From contig JAKFBU010000073.1 of assembly GCA_036676985.1 (NCBI GenBank), positions 96,001-160,000 on the forward strand: a stretch of DNA of 64,000 nucleotides, read 5' to 3'. This DNA comes from Candidatus Sericytochromatia bacterium. Its GTDB lineage: Bacteria > Cyanobacteriota > Sericytochromatia > S15B-MN24 > UBA4093. The position numbers and the translations under genes were made by a program. Below, in pieces: positions 27,020-43,793 of the stretch. The notes beneath the pieces were generated by a model. It saw nothing but the letters and a program-made list of their open reading frames with translations, was not told where the DNA came from and did no database searches. How positions within the stretch are numbered: position 1 is the stretch's first letter; every line of letters starts with the position of its first letter.

Positions 27020-28573
27020 ATGGGGATGGGACAACCGATCCAGGGGTACCCCTACGTTCCGGCGGTCCCCTACATGCCACCCGTGGGCATGCCGCCCGTC
27101 ATACCGTACATGCCGCCGGTTCCGGTGGCCCAGCCGGTCCCCATGATGCCGACCGTGCCAATGGCGCCCCCGGCCCCGCCCATCACGGTCGTGCCCATCG
27201 GCCAGATTCCGCCAGCCGTTCCAGGCGATCAGTGGGTCCCCAGCCAGCCCACCGCCGGCCCCACCGTGCCGCCGGCCCCCCCGGCTCCCCCGATGACCCC
27301 GGCACCGCTCAATCCGCCGGCCGACCACTATGTTCCCAGTCAGCCGACCCCGGGCCCCAAGGCGCCTCCCGCGCCCCCTGCGCCTCCGGTCCACGAGCCG
27401 AAGAAGGTGAAGCCCACGAGCGACCGGGCAGAGTTCAATCGCATGGACTCCAACCATTCCGGCAAGGTCTCGGCCAAGGAGTTCAAGGCCCGCGGTGGCG
27501 ACAACTTCAAGCAGGCCGACCGCAACCGCGATCGCCACGTGACCTGGCGCGAGTACCGTGCCACCGAACTCACGCGCCAGTCCTTCCAGCACCTGGACCG
27601 CAACCATGACGGCATGCTCAAGGCCGGCGAGATCTCCCGGATCGAGACCCCTTCGGGCGCGACCTTCGACGCCAACCATGACGGCAAGGTGACCAAGAAG
27701 GAGTTCCTGGCGGCGCGCACCAAGGATGCCAAGGCCGTCGGGCGCCCCGATGCCAAGGACGTGCGGGCCCGGGCGGACAAGGTCTTCAAGCAGGCCGACC
27801 TGGACCGCAACGGGCGCCTCACGGGCGACGAGCGGAGCCGCCACCGCGCCTACGATCGCAACAAGAACGGCATGATCTCGCGCTCCGAGTTCATGGCGGG
27901 CCAGGCCGACGACCGCCAGGCGGCCGACCAGCAGCTGCAGCTCAAGGGGCGCTTGCCCGATGCCCTGGCGCGCCGGCTCTGGAAGGACGCCCTGGGCGAG
28001 TCCCGGAAGGTGCCCAAGCCCGGCATGTGGCTCGACGCGACCAAGATCGCCGCCCTGCTCGGCTCGCCCGTCGCGAACGTCCGCAAGAGCCTGCCCGGCA
28101 TCCTCAAGGCCCTCAACGAGGCCGGCCTCAAGGACCGCAACTCCGTCATCGCCGTGCTCGCGACCATCCGCACCGAGGTGGGCAGCTTCATGCCCATCCA
28201 CGAGTACGGGGGCCCGTCATACTGGGCCCGGTACAACGGTCGCTCGGATCTCGGCAACGTGCGGCCCGGCGACGGCGTGCGCTACCACGGCCGCGGTTTC
28301 ATCCAGCTGACGGGGCGTCACAACTACCGTACCTATGGCCAGGCCGTGGGCGTGGACCTCGAGAAGCACCCGGACAAGGCCCTCAACCCCAAGGTGGCGG
28401 CCGAGGTGCTCATCGCCTACTTCAAGTCCCACGGCATCCCGGACAAGGCGCGCCGGGGTGACTGGTACGGCGTGCGCACCGCCGTCAACGGCGGCGACAA
28501 CGGCTGGGACACCTTCAGATGGGCCGTCAGCAGGCTCCAGAGCTCCTCGAGCTGGCTCAAGCGAGACGGATGA
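27020..28573 (+). CDS. Pro-rich, multi-EF-hand, GH19-like (chitinase/lysozyme) fusion protein
   Basis: About six DxNxDGx EF-hand-like loops; C-terminal TE...HE, YHGRGFIQLTGRHNY, DLEKHPD, VNGGDNG GH19 motifs. Confidence 0.85.
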   Translation: MGMGQPIQGYPYVPAVPYMPPVGMPPVIPYMPPVPVAQPVPMMPTVPMAPPAPPITVVPIGQIPPAVPGDQWVPSQPTAGPTVPPAPPAPPMTPAPLNPPADHYVPSQPTPGPKAPPAPPAPPVHEPKKVKPTSDRAEFNRMDSNHSGKVSAKEFKARGGDNFKQADRNRDRHVTWREYRATELTRQSFQHLDRNHDGMLKAGEISRIETPSGATFDANHDGKVTKKEFLAARTKDAKAVGRPDAKDVRARADKVFKQADLDRNGRLTGDERSRHRAYDRNKNGMISRSEFMAGQADDRQAADQQLQLKGRLPDALARRLWKDALGESRKVPKPGMWLDATKIAALLGSPVANVRKSLPGILKALNEAGLKDRNSVIAVLATIRTEVGSFMPIHEYGGPSYWARYNGRSDLGNVRPGDGVRYHGRGFIQLTGRHNYRTYGQAVGVDLEKHPDKALNPKVAAEVLIAYFKSHGIPDKARRGDWYGVRTAVNGGDNGWDTFRWAVSRLQSSSSWLKRDG

Positions 28574-30081: not shown

Positions 30082-30876
30082 CTACTGCACCTGGGTGCCG
30101 ACATGCTCCCGGAGGAGGGTGCGAGCGCGATCGAAGGGCTCCGGACCGAGGCCCGCTCGCCCCCACAGCGGATGATCGAGGGCGATGATCAGGAAGACCA
30201 CCAGCCCGAGCATGCCGGCGAGACTCGTGATCATGGCGGCGTGGACGCGCCGGTTGTCGGTCCAGAAGCAGTAGGTGAACCCGACGGTCAGGGTCGCCCC
30301 CGCGAACAGCACAAACCACAGCTCTCCCGGCAGTCCCGCGGTGCCGGCGAGGATCCGCTGGCGACGGTAGCCGATCAGGTCGTCGAGGTTGCGGAGGGCT
30401 TCGGCGTGCATGAGGCCCTGCCCCGTGCCGACGGGCTCGAAGCGGGCCCACTCCCGCACCAGGCCCTCGATTGCCCGACCGCTCGCATGGGGCTCCTCCC
30501 GGCGCGCGAGGCGCGGCCAGTCGTCCGAGACCACGAGGCTCGCGTAGTCGACGAGCATGGCCTCGAGCCGCTGACGGACGGCCGGCGGGTAGGCCTCCAG
30601 GTCCAGGGCGAGCTCGGTGAGGGTCGCGGCCTCGTGGGCGATCGCCCGCTCGGCCGCCGTGTAATTCTCCCAGGCCCCCACGGCCACCAGCCCCAGCAGC
30701 ACCGCGTAGATGACGGAGATCCCCTCGAAGACGAAGCGCGCGAGCTCGTTGTGGGTGAGGCTGAAGCGCTGGATCCAAGGGTGCGCGAGGCGGAAGCCCA
30801 GGAGCGACAGCCCCACGAAGCCCCCGATCACCCCCACGGCCAGCAGCGAATTGGGGACCCACTCCCACCAGCGCAT
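30082..30876 (-). CDS. DUF4239 / bestrophin-like membrane protein
   Basis: IYAVLLGLVAVGAWE, EAATL, RRQR, IIALDHPL motifs; four TMs. Confidence 0.75.
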   Translation of the reverse strand: MRWWEWVPNSLLAVGVIGGFVGLSLLGFRLAHPWIQRFSLTHNELARFVFEGISVIYAVLLGLVAVGAWENYTAAERAIAHEAATLTELALDLEAYPPAVRQRLEAMLVDYASLVVSDDWPRLARREEPHASGRAIEGLVREWARFEPVGTGQGLMHAEALRNLDDLIGYRRQRILAGTAGLPGELWFVLFAGATLTVGFTYCFWTDNRRVHAAMITSLAGMLGLVVFLIIALDHPLWGRAGLGPEPFDRARTLLREHVGTQVQ

Positions 30877-31146
30877 GGCCCGTCCTCCCGCGCCATCAGG
30901 CGCTTGCCGGCCTCTTGAGCCCGATCGCGCGCATTAAATCCTCGTTGCGGTTCCGTGAGAAGTGTTTGGAATTAAAAAAATCTCAGACAAGTGTGACAGA
31001 TTTGGGTGCCCGCCGGGTGAAATACGGGAGGAAGCCGAAACGATCCCCCGGCAAGAATGAGTCCAGCAAGCCGTCGGGGTATAGAACTCGCAGCCGAATG
31101 CGAGTCGCAACGTCCAGGCACTCGCATTCGAATCGGGAGGGTTTGC

Positions 31147-32433
31147 ATGTCAGGCATTTCATCAGTCACCAACACACCGGCCTACACGCCGCCGGCCCAG
31201 ACCGCGGGGGCCGGAGCTCCTGCCGCTGCCGGCGGTGCCGCGCCCGCTTCCGCTCCGGCCGCGGCCGGCGACTCCGTCAGCACGGGTGGCGGTCAAGCAG
31301 CCTCGGGCAACCTCGAGATGTTCCAGGCCTCGGGCGTCGTCAAGGACGTCTCGCCCCCCCTGCCCCCGGTCGAGCAGCCCAAGGCGACGGCCGCACCCGA
31401 CATCAAGCCGTACGAGGCCCCGCCGGTCCACGACGACACGATCAAACCGCCTTCGCCCATCAAGAACACCCATTTTTCGATCATCGAGGGCCCGGCGAGC
31501 CCCGACCCCTGAGTGGAGTTCTGCGGCCGCGATGGTATCGCGGCAACGGTGAGCGGCCCCCACGGGTCCATGCAGATGCCCATCCAGCAGCGCAACGGCA
31601 CCTACGAGATCCTGCGCGACGCCTACAACCCGGGCGACCTCAACGTCAAGGGCGAGTTCGTCGACGGCGACCTCAAGAAGGTCTCCATGACCGTCAGCAT
31701 GGATAAGGCCAAGGGCACGGCCGACCTGATCGAGTACGACGGCACGACGCTCATGGTCAACGGCAAGCCGGCCAACCCGCCCCTGACCACCGAGAACGGC
31801 ACCAAGATCACGATGGAGGGCGGCAAGTTCCACATCGAGACCAAGGGCGGCGACACGTTCAACATGGAGCCGACCATCTGCCCGGCCATCAACCTGGAAG
31901 GCGACGTCAACCCCAACCGCGGCACGGATAGCGTGCGCTCGGAGCTGCTGGGCGACTTCGACGACGATCCCAACAGCACCTGGGTCACCAACGCGGATGC
32001 CCAGAACATCTTCGGTGCGGGCGGCGCCACCGGCGCTCCGGCCGGCGGTGCGGGCGCTGCGGGTGGCGGTACCTCGTTCCTGGACAGCATCTTCGAGAGC
32101 CTGCGCAAGCTCTTCTCGTCGCTCGCAGGCTCCAGCGACGCCGGCTCCGTGCCCCCTGGCCCCGGCCAGGACCTGCTCAACAAGGTCAAGACGCCCGAGC
32201 TCAAGCAGGCGATCTTCGACAAGGCCAAGTCGGGCGGCGGCATCGACGTCGACAAGCTGCTCGCGACCATCAAGGATCCGGCCGAGCGCGAGAAGATCGG
32301 CATGGCCCTCACGCACGGCTCGACGTCTGTCGAGGACGTGATCAAGATGATCTCGAAGCCGGAGGAGCGCCTGGCGTTCCTGACCGAGCTGGTCGGTCCC
32401 ACCAAGGCCGCCGAGCTCAACGCCAAGCTCTAG
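31147..32433 (+). CDS. Low-complexity N-terminus plus VWD-like domain protein with in-frame TGA at codon 122 (candidate selenoprotein, or nonsense pseudogene)
   Basis: ORFs 31057-31512 and 31513-32433 are in the same frame, separated only by TGA 31510-31512; GGGAGG SD before ATG 31147, none before GTG 31513; GC3 bias continuous; SPDP*V and LLGDFDDDPNS resemble the ends of a VWD domain. Confidence 0.65.
31526..31544 (+). promoter_or_regulatory. Bacterial SECIS-like hairpin
   Basis: GCCGCGAT-GGT-ATCGCGGC, 8-bp perfect stem; G-first loop begins 21 nt after the UGA. Confidence 0.5.
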
Positions 32434-32443
32434 TCTGACCCAG

Positions 32444-32470
32444 GGAGGGCGGGGGACTTCCCCCGCCCTC
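32444..32470 (+). terminator. GC-rich hairpin after the TGA-containing gene
   Basis: GAGGGCGGGGGA-CT-TCCCCCGCCCTC. Confidence 0.6.
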
Positions 32471-32495
32471 GCTTCCCGTCTCAAGAGGAGTCTCC

Positions 32496-33335
32496 ATGGC
32501 CACCGCGAGCCCCGCCCCCGTCCGCACCGGCAACGAGAAGGTCGTCTACGACTGCTGCACCGCCATGCGGGGAATCCTGGACCGCTTCAAACCGAACGGC
32601 GCCCTCGACTGGCCGGGTGCCGAGGCCATCGTCAACAAATTAGCCAAGATCTTGCCCCCCTCGCCCGAGCTGGTGCCCGGCCTCCGGGTCACGGGCGGCT
32701 ACGACGAGGCCCACGCCATCAACGTGGCCGTCTACGCCATGACCATGGCGCGCGGCATGGGCATGCCCCAGGGCCGCCTCATCGAGATCGGCCTCGCGGC
32801 CCTCTTCCACGACATCGGCAAGATCATGCCCCAGTCCCACCCGAAGAAGGCCGAGCTCACCCGCTTCGAGGAGCACGGCTCCATCGGCCGGGTGATGCTC
32901 TCCGAGCACTTCGAGGTGCTGCCGCGCATCACCGAGTGGGTGGCCGACCACCACGAACGGGTGGACGGCAGCGGCCCGCGCGGCCACAAGACCCCGTCCA
33001 TCGAGGCCCAGATCATCGGCCTGGTCGACATCTACGACGCCAACCTCACGCCCCACCCGCGCCGGGCCACCCTGACGCCGCACTCGGCGTGGAACGTGGC
33101 CCTCACGGTGGCCCCCAAGAAGTTCGCGCCCGAGGTGGTCGCGGCCTTCAAGGCGCACATCCTGCCCTACCCGCCCGAGACCCGGGTGGTGCTCACGGGC
33201 GGCACGCCCGCGGTGATCGTGACGCCCGCCGCCTCGGAGCACCCCTTGGCTCCGGTGGTGCGCTGCGGCGACGGCAACGTGTACGACCTCTCGGAGTACG
33301 CCTCGCCGCGGGTCGTGGGCCTGGCGCGCGACTGA
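32496..33335 (+). CDS. HD-GYP-like metal-dependent phosphohydrolase
   Basis: HAINVA, ALFHDIGK, HHERVDGSG, DIYDA, PYPP motifs. Confidence 0.85.
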   Translation: MATASPAPVRTGNEKVVYDCCTAMRGILDRFKPNGALDWPGAEAIVNKLAKILPPSPELVPGLRVTGGYDEAHAINVAVYAMTMARGMGMPQGRLIEIGLAALFHDIGKIMPQSHPKKAELTRFEEHGSIGRVMLSEHFEVLPRITEWVADHHERVDGSGPRGHKTPSIEAQIIGLVDIYDANLTPHPRRATLTPHSAWNVALTVAPKKFAPEVVAAFKAHILPYPPETRVVLTGGTPAVIVTPAASEHPLAPVVRCGDGNVYDLSEYASPRVVGLARD

Positions 33336-33465: not shown

Positions 33466-33996
33466 ATGATGACCGCCGACAACGCGCACCTGGCCGCCAA
33501 GATCCGGGAGATCCCGGACTACCCCAAGCCGGGCGTGAGCTTCAAGGACATCACCCCCCTGATGCAGGACGCCGCGGCCCTGCGCGACGCCATCGACCAG
33601 GTGGCGCGCCACTTCGCCGCGGCCGACATCGCGCACGTGGTGGGCATCGAGTCGCGCGGCTTCATCTTCGGCGCGGCCATCGCCTACGCCCTCAAGGCGG
33701 GCTTCATCCCCGTCCGCAAGCCGGGCAAGCTGCCCCATGAGACCCACCGCTGCGAGTACGAGCTCGAGTACGGCACCGACGCCCTCGAGATCCACACGGA
33801 CGCCGTCCGGCCGGGCGAGCGGGTGCTCATCATCGACGACGTGCTCGCCACCGGCGGCACCGCCTCGGCCGCCGTCGAGCTCGTCAACAAGCTGGGCGGC
33901 GAGGTCGCGGGCCTCGGCTTCCTCATCGAGCTGGGCTTCCTGAACGGGCGCGATCGCCTCAAGGGCCACGACGTCTTCAGCCTCGTGACCTACTAG
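33466..33996 (+). CDS. apt: Adenine phosphoribosyltransferase
   Basis: IPDYPKPGVSFKDITPL, ESRGF, RKPGKLP, IIDDVLATGGT. Confidence 0.97.
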   Translation: MMTADNAHLAAKIREIPDYPKPGVSFKDITPLMQDAAALRDAIDQVARHFAAADIAHVVGIESRGFIFGAAIAYALKAGFIPVRKPGKLPHETHRCEYELEYGTDALEIHTDAVRPGERVLIIDDVLATGGTASAAVELVNKLGGEVAGLGFLIELGFLNGRDRLKGHDVFSLVTY

Positions 33997-34046: not shown

Positions 34047-34871
34047 CTACCGGCCCCGCTGGTGGGCCAGGCGATGGGCCTTCTTGAGGCTCTTGGGCGC
34101 CGGGTGCGCCCGATCGTAGACGACAACGGCGTTGGTGAGCCCCCAGTGAGGCTTGGCCACGATCTTGCCCCGGTAGGCCATGCCCACCGAGGGGCCGCCA
34201 TCCAAGTTGAGGGCGTCGTGCACGCCGAGCCTCCGCATGGCCTCGGCCTCTTCTTGAAGCGTGATGCGCTCCGGGAAGGTCACGAACATCAGGCGCCGGC
34301 GATCCCGGCTCAGGCCCACGGCCGTCCGCGGGGCGCGCCCGAACACGGAGGGATCGCGGAAGCCCTCGAACCACGGCCGGAGCCAGACCTGGCCGTCCTT
34401 GACCAGGCGCGGCCCCGCGGCGAAGGACAGCCAGGCGGTGCGGTAATCGGGCAGCCCTTCGGTCCGGATGGTCTGGATCCTAGCCTTGCCGCTCCGGTCG
34501 ATGGTCAAGGACGTGCCGCGGGTGTCCCAGTCCCGGTACTGGACGAGCCGGCCGTCCACTACCGTGTTGCCGAGGGTGTCGAAGGTCGAGACGCTGAAGA
34601 AGGTGCCGTTGACCACGGCTGCCGCCCGCGAGGCCTGCGTGAAGGCCTGGAAGCCCTCGTGGCAGCGGTGCTGGGGGACCCCGCCGTGCGCGAAGCGCAT
34701 GGACACGAGCGTCTGGGCATCCTTGAGGTCCGCCGAGACCACGATCGCCTTGACCGGTCGGCGGTTGATCGTGACCGCTTTGCGGGCAATCGCCACCGGT
34801 TGGGCGAGGGCCGGCGCGGGCCAGAGGGACAGGGCCAGGACGAGGGCTACTAGCGGGCGATGAGCGGTCAT
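34047..34871 (-). CDS. Secreted phosphodiester glycosidase (NAGPA/DUF2233) family protein
   Basis: Signal peptide; NGTFF, AGPRLVKDG, PRTAVG, ALNLDGGPS motifs. Confidence 0.85.
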   Translation of the reverse strand: MTAHRPLVALVLALSLWPAPALAQPVAIARKAVTINRRPVKAIVVSADLKDAQTLVSMRFAHGGVPQHRCHEGFQAFTQASRAAAVVNGTFFSVSTFDTLGNTVVDGRLVQYRDWDTRGTSLTIDRSGKARIQTIRTEGLPDYRTAWLSFAAGPRLVKDGQVWLRPWFEGFRDPSVFGRAPRTAVGLSRDRRRLMFVTFPERITLQEEAEAMRRLGVHDALNLDGGPSVGMAYRGKIVAKPHWGLTNAVVVYDRAHPAPKSLKKAHRLAHQRGR

Positions 34872-35028
34872 GGGTCCCTCCGGCGTTGCAGCGACGTTTC
34901 TCCCAGTGTCCGCAATCGGGGCGCCGGGCGCCACGGCGGGGGCGCCGAGCTTCGTTGGCCACCTTGGCGGGACCGTGCAACGCTTGCTCGCTCGCGGTAA
35001 GATGGGGCCGTACCGTCCGGAGGAACTC

Positions 35029-36111
35029 ATGATCGGCAACCTCTCCTCGCGCACCTTCCTGTGGGCCGTCTGCTACACGGGACTCTTCATCGTCACCTTC
35101 GCCCTCCTCAGGCCCTTCTGGGAGGCGATCGCCTGGTCCTTCATCCTGGCGGCCGTGACGTGGCCCCTGTACCGCCGGCTCCGCGACCTCTGCAAGGGCA
35201 ACGCCACGGTCTCGGCCGTCCTCATGTGCCTGGTGGTCGTGGCGGCCATCGCCGTCCCGTTCTCGTTCATCGTGGCCTCGCTCTTGAAAGAGGTGGGCCC
35301 CGCCTTCAACTCGCTGATGCACATCCTGTCCTCGCCCCCCTCGCCGCCGGGCTGGCTCAACCGCTTCCCGGCCGTGGTCAACGCCTACGAGGAGGCGATC
35401 GCAGCCGCGCGCAGCGGCTCGGGCCCCGGCCGGGACTGGCTGGTCTCCCTGGCCCGGCCCGGCACCCGGGTGCTCGCGGCGGCGGGCGACACCCTCTTGC
35501 AGGGGGCCATCGCCCTCTTCACGCTCTTCTTCCTGTACCGGAACGGCGATCGCTACCGGGTCCAGGCGCGGGCGGTCTTCACCTACCTCTTGGGCCCGTC
35601 GGTGGGGCGCCTCGTGCAGCCGACCAAGGACGCCATGCGGGCGGTGTTCGCAGGCGTCATCCTGGCGGCCGCCGCTCAGGGCGTGACGGCAGGCATCGGC
35701 TTTGCCATCGTCGGGCTGCATGCCCCCATCCTCTTGGGCGTGGCCACCGCCGTCACGGCCCTCATCCCCTTTGGCGCGGTGCTCATCTGGGGCACGTCGG
35801 CCGTGTGGCTCATCGCCACGGGCTCCCTGGTCAAGGGGCTCGTCCTGGTCGCGTGGGGGGCGCTCGCCGTCAGCAGCGTCGACAACCTGGTGCGCCCCCT
35901 GGTCATCAGCGGCGCCACCCGCTTGCCCTACCTGCAGGTCTTCTTCGCCTTCCTGGGGGGCCTGGCGACCTTCGGGCTCATCGGCCTCTTCATCGGTCCG
36001 GCCGTGCTCGCCATCTGGATGGTGCTCTGGAACGAGTGGGCCGCCGCCGGCGCCCCGCCGTCGACCGAGAGCCCGCCCGTCAGCCTTGACGCGCCGCCCG
36101 CCGGGGGCTAG
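35029..36111 (+). CDS. AI-2E family transporter
   Basis: DNLVRPLVI, GGLATFGLIGLFIGP motifs; multiple TMs. Confidence 0.9.
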   Translation: MIGNLSSRTFLWAVCYTGLFIVTFALLRPFWEAIAWSFILAAVTWPLYRRLRDLCKGNATVSAVLMCLVVVAAIAVPFSFIVASLLKEVGPAFNSLMHILSSPPSPPGWLNRFPAVVNAYEEAIAAARSGSGPGRDWLVSLARPGTRVLAAAGDTLLQGAIALFTLFFLYRNGDRYRVQARAVFTYLLGPSVGRLVQPTKDAMRAVFAGVILAAAAQGVTAGIGFAIVGLHAPILLGVATAVTALIPFGAVLIWGTSAVWLIATGSLVKGLVLVAWGALAVSSVDNLVRPLVISGATRLPYLQVFFAFLGGLATFGLIGLFIGPAVLAIWMVLWNEWAAAGAPPSTESPPVSLDAPPAGG

Positions 36112-43703: not shown

Positions 43704-43706
43704 CAG

Positions 43707-43793
43707 CGGAGGCGGTGGGATTCGAACCCACGGTGGCTGTGACACCACGCTTGTTTTCAAGACAAGAGCCTTAAACCACTCGGCCACACCTCC
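43707..43793 (-). tRNA. tRNA-Ser (anticodon TGA), CCA not encoded
   Basis: GGAGGTGTGGCCGAGTGGTTTAAGGC...CTTGT-CTTGAAA-ACAAG, long variable arm, GGTTCGAATCC T-arm, G discriminator. Confidence 0.96.

Follow-up and report, generated by a model that had tools for sequence, protein, structure and literature searches.

The reading frame at the locus and its in-frame TGA

The stretch of DNA analysed here, referred to as the window, is 64,000 nucleotides long and corresponds to positions 96001-160000 of contig C73 of a Candidatus Sericytochromatia genome (G000; 4.68 Mb in 79 contigs, 67.3% G+C). On its forward strand, positions 31147-32433 hold a reading frame of 428 codons followed by TAG, in which the only internal stop is a TGA at 31510-31512. 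We treat this frame as a candidate selenoprotein gene in which UGA122 would be read as selenocysteine (Sec, U); its homologues share the same architecture. The frame opens with an ATG at 31147 and ends with the TAG at 32431-32433, and a GTG at 31513 follows directly after the TGA. A Shine-Dalgarno-like word, GGGAGG, is found at 31135-31140, 6 nt upstream of the ATG, and GGAGG-like words are also present upstream of the N-terminal ATG of the homologues. The 15 nt upstream of the GTG (gcgagccccgacccc) are without a Shine-Dalgarno-like word. When the frame is translated with TGA as U, the product can be divided into three parts. By composition and hydropathy, residues 1-100 (31147-31446) form an N-terminal region rich in Pro, Ala, Gly, Ser and Thr (64% taken together). 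Residues 101-288 (31447-32010), as modelled with AlphaFold2 (AF2) and compared using Foldseek and VIA, are predicted to form a beta-sandwich like that of von Willebrand factor D (VWD) domains. Residues 300-428 (32044-32430) make up a C-terminal region that is conserved only within the window's clade and has no family match.

Coding sequence continues over the stop. Upstream and downstream of the TGA alike, differences among close homologues fall mostly on third codon positions of the same frame (for example 5/4/27 by codon position upstream and 8/8/60 downstream), and the TGA is one of 29 sites in the 4.68 Mb that pass a whole-genome scan in which 60 coding-like codons were required on each side. 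An earlier reading of the window, the sequence-only reading, had described one frame broken only by the TGA at 31510, a following GTG lacking a Shine-Dalgarno sequence, and coding that is continuous over the stop. The sequence and its translation, the 15 nt before the GTG, and the genome scan together with the third-position differences bear out these descriptions.

Conservation of the TGA, the downstream hairpin and the Sec machinery

When the read-through protein was used as query, 7 of 61 related genomes gave a match. Four of them, from another family (G012, G018, G020 and G024; 34-40% identity), have exactly one TGA each within the match. In a genome of the same genus (G001) only residues 1-90 match, because the contig ends there. 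The remaining rows among the 61 genomes are two paralogues that match only in the N-terminal 120 residues and two partial matches of the GDPH type, i.e. proteins with the canonical Gly-Asp-Pro-His motif of VWD domains. Nine more loci come from genome and metagenome contigs; one of these (L031) stops short of the column of the TGA, and all eight that reach the column carry TGA at it. One of the eight is L026, whose identity is 51% over the full 428 residues and which reads ...SPDP-U-NELCGRAVGG... at this place. TGA is found at the same column in 7/7 distinct homologous DNA sequences. These derive from 13 loci in at least four deep lineages, with identities of 34-51%, the distinct types being the window, L026 (51%), the G018 type (40%) and the g7 types (34-37%). 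The motif around the column is ...[G/P]DP-U-xExCG..., with ...GPASPDP-U-VEFCGRDGIAATVSGP in the window and ...GPPQGDP-U-LEMCGGAVGAATISGP in homologues. When 401 genomes of the phylum were searched with a profile, five matches covered the column, each with exactly one TGA, and the other 12 rows of that search are partial matches of the GDPH type that are stop-free. In the g7 homologues a second TGA serves as the true terminator of the same gene.

The same position marks a boundary in the protein database. The C-terminal clusters start just past the column (9/9 clusters of 284-306 aa and 10/10 of 260-285 aa, which NCBI names hypothetical proteins), and the complete N-terminal clusters, down to 47% identity, end in ...THFSIIEGPASPDP (...SPDP) in 7/7 cases. 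A sense codon of any kind at the column was not found in the database clusters or genome matches of this family, here called Sec-type, that were searched. In a crude set of 2531 open reading frames (ORFs) from the genome, stops are TAG in 1254 cases, TGA in 640 and TAA in 637. Since TGA accounts for only 640 of the 2531, it is unlikely that four lineages came to have it in common by drift; a rough estimate puts this at 0.25^3 to 0.25^4.

The relatives are metagenome-assembled genomes (MAGs) of Candidatus Sericytochromatia or Tanganyikabacteria, and their taxon labels are inconsistent between sources. One partial protein of 91 aa (P0180), 75% identical to the N-terminus of the candidate, has the source name 'Stenomitos sp.', a filamentous cyanobacterium; other named relatives are Candidatus Sericytochromatia. 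It is also worth noting that the TAG-heavy stop usage is unusual for a genome of 67% G+C, with the shares being rough as they come from a heuristic gene set.

In a draft assembly of 79 contigs a stop codon within a gene could be a miscalled base, or the gene could be a pseudogene with a recent nonsense mutation. The draft state is the sole point in favour of such an error. The same TGA is present in independent assemblies from several genera and from metagenomes, at 34-51% protein identity, and purifying selection is seen on both sides of it. Parts of the stretch are present in at least 20 sequencing runs from 13 studies. Contigs of four of these runs were compared, and the only one that visibly spans the TGA is a 260-nt contig of run X10, which independently bridges 31423-31682 with two differences; no difference at 31510-31512 is among those listed. 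As judged from conservation, an error or pseudogene is effectively refuted, and we give it next to no chance. As a separate observation, Logan contigs of two other independent metagenome runs (X5 and X8) repeatedly stop at 31496-31503 and resume at 31551-31552, flanking the TGA and the hairpin described below; this may reflect strain variation or a break of the assembly graph at the hairpin. The one clear RNA run (X20) contains only short, unlike pieces of the stretch.

Downstream of the TGA lies an element resembling a selenocysteine insertion sequence (SECIS), at 31518-31554. Its upper stem is a perfect 8-bp helix between the arms GCCGCGAT (31526-31533) and ATCGCGGC (31537-31544), which enclose a GGT loop (GGU in the RNA) at 31534-31536 starting 21 nt past the TGA, and below it is a bulged lower stem. 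The sequence-only reading had reported the hairpin with its GGU loop at this distance, and had also pointed out that it is built from codons that are rare in the genome (GAT GGT, GCA). Both statements are correct: genome-wide, GAT makes up 19% of Asp codons, GGT 6.9% of Gly codons and GCA 3.1% of Ala codons, and all three are found within codons 129-133, in the stem and loop. Rare codons at this place point to selection on the RNA. If a comparable hairpin is defined as a perfect stem of at least 8 Watson-Crick pairs with a loop of 3-8 nt, a G in the first two loop positions and a loop start at 16-37 nt, it is seen at 47 of 20248 random in-frame coding positions (0.23%). A search of Rfam at E <= 10 over 31000-32600 gave no match at the SECIS-like hairpin.

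All seven distinct homologous sequences fold the hairpin in the same register, with GGU, GUG or GUC as loop nucleotides 25-27 counted from the U of UGA. The stems of the homologues are 8-9 bp long, with one mismatch in two of them. Passages of PMC13188914 give a model for bacterial SECIS (bSECIS) elements, namely a loop of 3-9 nt, an upper stem of 4-16 bp, a G in the first two loop positions, a spacing of 16-37 nt and a minimum free energy <= -7.5, and all seven hairpins agree with it (8-bp stem, GGU and 21 nt in the window). In an alignment of the seven sequences with a specified structure, 85.7% of the cells are paired, and 5 of 16 pairs have changed on both sides, e.g. U-A and A-U in the window vs. 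C-G and C-G in others. None of 500 shuffles reached any of five covariation measures, sliding the partner by 1-3 columns lowered pairing to 34-62%, and RNAalifold recovers the same upper stem. The sequence-only reading had put forward homologues with TGA at the column and a covarying hairpin as something to look for, and this is what the seven sequences with their five compensatory pairs provide.

The genome has the machinery for Sec incorporation, which the same reading had also proposed to check. A tRNA-Sec is detected at 75.2 bits and called SeC(tca) by ARAGORN, SelA is found at 543 bits, SelB is detected by its wing domain, and SelD itself holds an in-frame TGA (...SGU-ASK...). If the TGA is read through, five sites of the scan besides the candidate each fall within one Pfam domain. 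They belong to a Redoxin/AhpC-TSA protein, a molybdopterin oxidoreductase of the formate dehydrogenase type, two CMD/AhpD-like proteins and an AhpC-TSA peroxiredoxin. Together with SelD this makes six further predicted selenoprotein genes in the genome, at C23:238012-238620 (-), C27:46615-49656 (+), C38:151880-152452 (+), C41:21241-21879 (+), C41:73848-74630 (-) and C26:280471-281394 (-); their types are thioredoxin/redoxin-like, formate dehydrogenase-type molybdopterin oxidoreductase, two CMD/AhpD-like, peroxiredoxin and SelD. The SECIS hairpins of these other genes have stems of 6-8 bp and the loops GGUCU, GUU, CGGG, GUCG and GUC, plus AGGUU for the thioredoxin-like gene as assigned by eye, starting about 17-33 nt after the UGA. 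Compared with them, as the sequence-only reading had suggested doing, the hairpin of the candidate is of the same kind, with a small loop containing G. Judging from these genes, the Sericytochromatia genome decodes UGA as Sec and has at least seven candidate selenoprotein genes. Within the class, tRNA-Sec is found in 24 of 47 genomes, and it is found in all five other genomes that hold a homologue (four complete, one cut by a contig end). The 23 other sites of the scan also have coding-like sequence on both sides of a TGA, and most of them look like same-frame gene junctions with a Met soon after the TGA.

A UGA that is read through could also be given a standard amino acid (Trp, Cys, Arg or Gly), either by near-cognate decoding or by a lineage-specific change of the code. 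As this would demand, the reading frame stays open and is conserved upstream as well as downstream of the TGA, and sequence tools are blind to the residue that is inserted. Yet the Sec system of the genome is complete, a SECIS-type hairpin follows the TGA, and just 29 TGA sites have coding sequence on both sides, six of which are the candidate and the five Pfam-confirmed selenoprotein genes. As TGA is an ordinary stop in about a quarter of the genes and ends the g7 homologues themselves, the genetic code is not reassigned. Insertion of a standard amino acid is therefore very improbable.

The VWD-type domain and the surroundings of the proposed Sec

Searches of Pfam and NCBIfam with the whole protein and with both halves gave no match. 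The AF2 model of residues 101-288, based on 69 aligned sequences, has a predicted local distance difference test score (pLDDT) of 85.4 and a predicted template modelling score (pTM) of 0.83, and shows a VWD beta-sandwich. With Foldseek the predicted model reaches E 4.9e-7 to MUC2. The VIA Z scores of the predicted model are 18.8 for MUC5AC, 18.7 for VWF, 18.1 for MUC2, 16.0 for FCGBP and 13.1 for RGMB; across 37 VWD/RGM entries they lie at 18.8-10.8, and every other chain is at 3.9 or below. According to this model, the domain is a VWD fold. The link from the window protein to the VWD family of Pfam (PF00094) is indirect and is made through two other proteins: a GDPH-type paralogue on contig C56 of the same genome (L043), which scores 25.6 bits vs. 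a cut-off of 22.9, and the Sec-type fragment P0173, which carries a precomputed PF00094 label. The terminal LLGDFDDD is aligned with the LGxFDxD of the GDPH-type VWD paralogues. Both the VWD-like nature of the domain and the resemblance of LLGDFDDD to a VWD motif had been noticed in the sequence-only reading, and the model, the structure comparisons and the paralogue support them. The first strand of the domain (residues 109-113) is encoded upstream of the TGA. With this strand upstream, same-frame selection on both sides and a Shine-Dalgarno-like word only before the ATG at 31147, the VWD domain can be taken to be continuous across the TGA.

It had also been thought that the protein is probably exported. 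This was considered and dropped: there is no signal peptide or transmembrane segment and no hydrophobic segment at the N-terminus (the maximum Kyte-Doolittle mean over 19 residues is 0.78), and the conserved neighbouring gene encodes an HD-GYP-like phosphohydrolase (see below). In the N-terminal region, a module of about 120 residues is the only part in common with a paralogue of 417 aa (G000:C77:12552-12917 = L020:1456-2709; G001:C119 = L021). The module has the motif M-x-G-[IM]-...-NT...ELFQA..V.KD..PPL.P, and the C-terminal part of the paralogue, which has no VWD portion, is different and internally repeated, with DTNGNGxxD motifs. From these sequences, the Pro/Ala-rich module looks like a reusable unit.

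The proposed Sec122 (31510-31512) is the residue directly after Asp120-Pro121 (codons GAC CCC, 31504-31509). This Asp-Pro pair is the counterpart of the scissile Asp-Pro of GDPH, and both residues are invariant in 12/12 Sec-type and GDPH-type sequences. Sec is thereby in the same register as the His of GDPH; the Gly of that motif is Pro in the window's clade (SPDP-U) and is kept in family f4. Two cysteines are specific to the Sec-type proteins: Cys126 (31522-31524), forming U-x-x-x-C, is invariant in 6/6 aligned Sec-type sequences and also present in the fragments that reach the column, and Cys245 (31879-31881) is invariant in 13/13. No invariant Cys was found in the set of GDPH-type paralogues. 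MAFFT places an 11-residue gap in the GDPH proteins right after the Pro, and for chains whose first residue is the Pro of a cleaved GDPH (8qci_B, RGMB), the alignment begins at model residue 33. Considering these alignments and the low pLDDT of this part of the model, the Sec would be the first residue of an inserted, probably flexible loop of 11-12 residues. The placement of Sec at the GDPH His position in the sequence-only reading holds as far as the motif register is concerned; with the alignment and the structure ranges putting an insertion of 11-12 residues at the Sec itself, Sec may either take the place of the His or stand at the head of an inserted loop. The loop reads U-V-E-F-C-G-R-D-G-I-A-A, and the codons for C126 to A133 encode the SECIS stem-loop. 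The variable Gly/Ala/Arg/Val content of the loop would fit a peptide shaped by the needs of the RNA. As for the His of GDPH, PMC10880436 reports that a His to Asn exchange in FCGBP D10 blocks Asp-Pro cleavage, and its authors propose a role for this His in polarising the carbonyl under attack.

The main rival to Sec insertion starts from this same bond. In a split VWD gene, the TGA would be a true stop and translation would restart at the adjacent GTG, ATG or TTG, so that two chains, one with Asp-Pro as its last residues and one beginning at the following strand, assemble in the manner of an autocleaved GD|PH domain with the first strand bound non-covalently. What makes this plausible is the presence of start-like codons after the TGA, at most three codons away in all lineages (GTG at +1 in the window, ATG at +3 in family f4 and TTG at +3 in L026). 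All gene callers annotate two ORFs here, and the relevant passages of PMC10880436 describe canonical GDPH domains as being cut at almost the same spot and staying folded. However, the stop is exclusively TGA and never TAG or TAA, even though TAG is the commonest stop in the genome. The restart codons lack a Shine-Dalgarno sequence and are followed within 6-14 nt by the beginning of a stable hairpin, one that fits the bSECIS model and covaries. In addition, the gene is found only in genomes with tRNA-Sec, and the subfamily has gained an invariant Cys four residues past the TGA. We consider a split gene to be improbable.

Probable Sec decoding, possible roles and comparison with known systems

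The gene directly downstream of the candidate encodes an HD-domain protein in 4/4 lineages examined (window, L026, L024 and L014). In the window it lies at 32496-33335 (+), has about 280 codons and matches Pfam HD at 60.7 bits and NCBIfam HDIG at 35.5 bits. The alignment shows the motifs HDIG and DHHERxDGxGP, from which we take it to be an HD-GYP-like phosphohydrolase.

Weighing the evidence, UGA122 is very probably decoded as Sec by way of SelB and the SECIS element, as the sequence-only reading had proposed. The TGA in 7/7 homologous sequences, the covarying hairpin in the same register and the sel machinery of the genome support this. The hairpin at 31518-31554 would recruit SelB-GTP-Sec-tRNA(Sec) to the ribosome at UGA122, and the product would be a protein of 428 residues in which a VWD-type beta-sandwich lies between a disordered N-terminal region and a C-terminal one.

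Several points count against this. Confirmation of the TGA at the level of reads is only partial. Hairpin stability is ordinary: the 45 nt that follow the TGA have a folding energy of -19.7 kcal/mol, which is matched by 9.4% of 1500 random in-frame coding 45-mers, and a comparable perfect hairpin follows 34 of the 640 ordinary TGA stops (5.3%). In a genome of 67.3% G+C, the hairpin taken alone is weak evidence. The covariation is based on just seven related sequences, and is for that reason taken as supportive and not decisive. A start-like codon used by gene callers comes within three codons after the TGA in every lineage. The window protein has no match to Pfam VWD (PF00094) and no Pfam match at E <= 1, the loop of the Sec is poorly modelled (model residues 21-30 with pLDDT of about 52), and hhalign joins the Sec-type and GDPH-type profiles (probability 98.8%) over the C-terminal two thirds of the domain only. 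A Cys at the Sec column was not found in 19 database clusters, in the best 150 of 3393 representative proteins or in 401 genomes, and the nearest stop-free relatives have His after the Asp-Pro. In excerpts of PMC13188914 it is stated that nearly all known selenoproteins possess a Cys-containing homologue. Finally, what is observed are the frame, the conserved TGA and hairpin, the machinery, the predicted fold and the gene order; the insertion of Sec, the full-length product and the chemistry are inferred from them.

Given Sec insertion, a redox or metal site next to the Asp-Pro is a tentative possibility. Sec122, C126 and C245 could form a redox-active selenylsulfide or a soft-metal site beside this bond. 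By analogy, the combination of a selenolate with two new cysteines suggests a selenylsulfide redox switch, a soft-metal site, or a nucleophile in Asp-Pro chemistry, possibly feeding the HD-GYP-like partner, with which the protein probably acts, as far as gene order can tell. A bolder proposal, which we think rather unlikely, is that this is the first selenoprotein family to come from an ancestor bearing His and not Cys, in which Sec serves selenium-dependent autoprocessing or acyl transfer, the loop mainly encodes the SECIS, and the output could be coupled to the HD-GYP-like neighbour. In such a case the selenolate might capture the Asp anhydride from Asp-Pro cleavage, or a U-x-x-x-C selenylsulfide or a soft metal might gate the cleavage.

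Between the candidate and the HD gene, at 32446-32469 (+), there is a perfect 10-bp hairpin with the loop ACTT and without a T-run. It has only sub-threshold Rfam matches. In L014, too, the stop is followed by a G/C hairpin of this kind. Attenuation or mRNA stability is a possible role for the element. Other genes in the surroundings are a multi-EF-hand protein with a weak match to chitinase class I (27020-28570, +), a bestrophin-like channel (30082-30876, -), a phosphoribosyltransferase (33466-33993, +), an NAGPA phosphodiester glycosidase (34047-35054, -) and a tRNA-Ser(tga) (43706-43793, -).

To our knowledge, nearly every bacterial selenoprotein described to date is a thiol-oxidoreductase-like protein or a metal-cofactor enzyme and has a Cys twin. 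Current pipelines for selenoprotein prediction depend on the pairing of Sec with Cys. One of them, deep-Sep, relies on Sec/Cys pairs and may miss selenoproteins without Cys homologues, as can be seen from parts of PMC12013277; this blindness would explain why a Sec-type VWD family has been overlooked. The literature searched contains no paper that connects selenoproteins to VWD or GDPH, and none that connects Sericytochromatia to selenocysteine. The main texts of PMC13188914, PMC12013277, PMC13326102 and PMC9312934 contain neither 'Willebrand' nor 'VWD'; a listing of the family under another name, e.g. among the 111 BSepDB families, is possible. With an unusual fold, a His position and no Cys counterpart, this seems to be an as yet undescribed selenoprotein family. 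If that is true, selenium serves a wider range of chemistry, the family offers a naturally occurring experiment on what the GDPH histidine does, and screens for Sec/Cys pairs can be seen to miss families. A 2022 review (PMC9312934) counts Cyanobacteria with the few lineages that seem to be without Sec; the analysis documents what appears to be an active Sec system in Sericytochromatia, the class next to them.

Among known systems, the candidate resembles the bacterial selenoproteins with a bSECIS element, such as FdhA, SelD and the Prx-, AhpD- and thioredoxin-like proteins, in having an in-frame UGA, a small loop with G 16-37 nt downstream and the same machinery. Unlike them, its predicted fold is neither of the thioredoxin nor of the molybdopterin type, and its stop-free relatives have His, no Cys form having been found among the sequences searched. 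Proteins of the NopE1/DUF1521 type are cut between Asp and Pro. According to PMC6506597, they are a bacterial precedent for a GDPH autocleavage motif, which here lies in an intrinsically disordered, calcium-induced domain found in proteins secreted by the type III system. By this description they are set apart from the candidate, with a disordered domain vs. the VWD beta-sandwich, and have no Sec.

The nearest stop-free relatives are the GDPH-type VWD paralogues of Sericytochromatia and other prokaryotes (e.g. G000:C56, L043:811-1920), which match the Sec-type profile at E 1e-15 to 1e-6 and have the same layout of a disordered N-terminus followed by VWD. In contrast to the Sec-type proteins, they lack the in-frame stop, the xExCG loop and any invariant Cys, and contain a canonical GDPH instead (for instance ...FSSWGDPHEKTGDG...). 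The one on C56, the single locus checked for this, has a different neighbour, a 2-phosphosulpholactate phosphatase, and some GDPH paralogues sit in genomes without tRNA-Sec (genus g2), unlike Sec-type genes. A joint profile of the Sec and GDPH types matches 3393 representative proteins at E <= 0.001, including eukaryote-like giant multi-VWD proteins, and GDPH is present in 48 of 50 shorter proteins among the matches listed. GDPH-type VWD-like proteins without signal peptides were also seen in G018 (6-7 loci), G026, G025, G002, G005, G008, G023, G013, G017 and G019 and at G000:C56:123551-123889. They are apparently a large, undescribed prokaryotic family.

With the eukaryotic GDPH VWD domains (FCGBP D10, MUC2, MUC5AC, VWF and RGM) the candidate shares the predicted fold, the Asp-Pro between strands 1 and 2, and the LGxFDxD near the end of the domain. 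It differs from them in being prokaryotic and in lacking the C8/TIL/E modules, the signal peptide and the disulfide-rich scaffold. At the motif itself, it has UGA, presumably Sec, in place of His, an extra loop of 11-12 residues and, in the window's clade, Pro in place of Gly.

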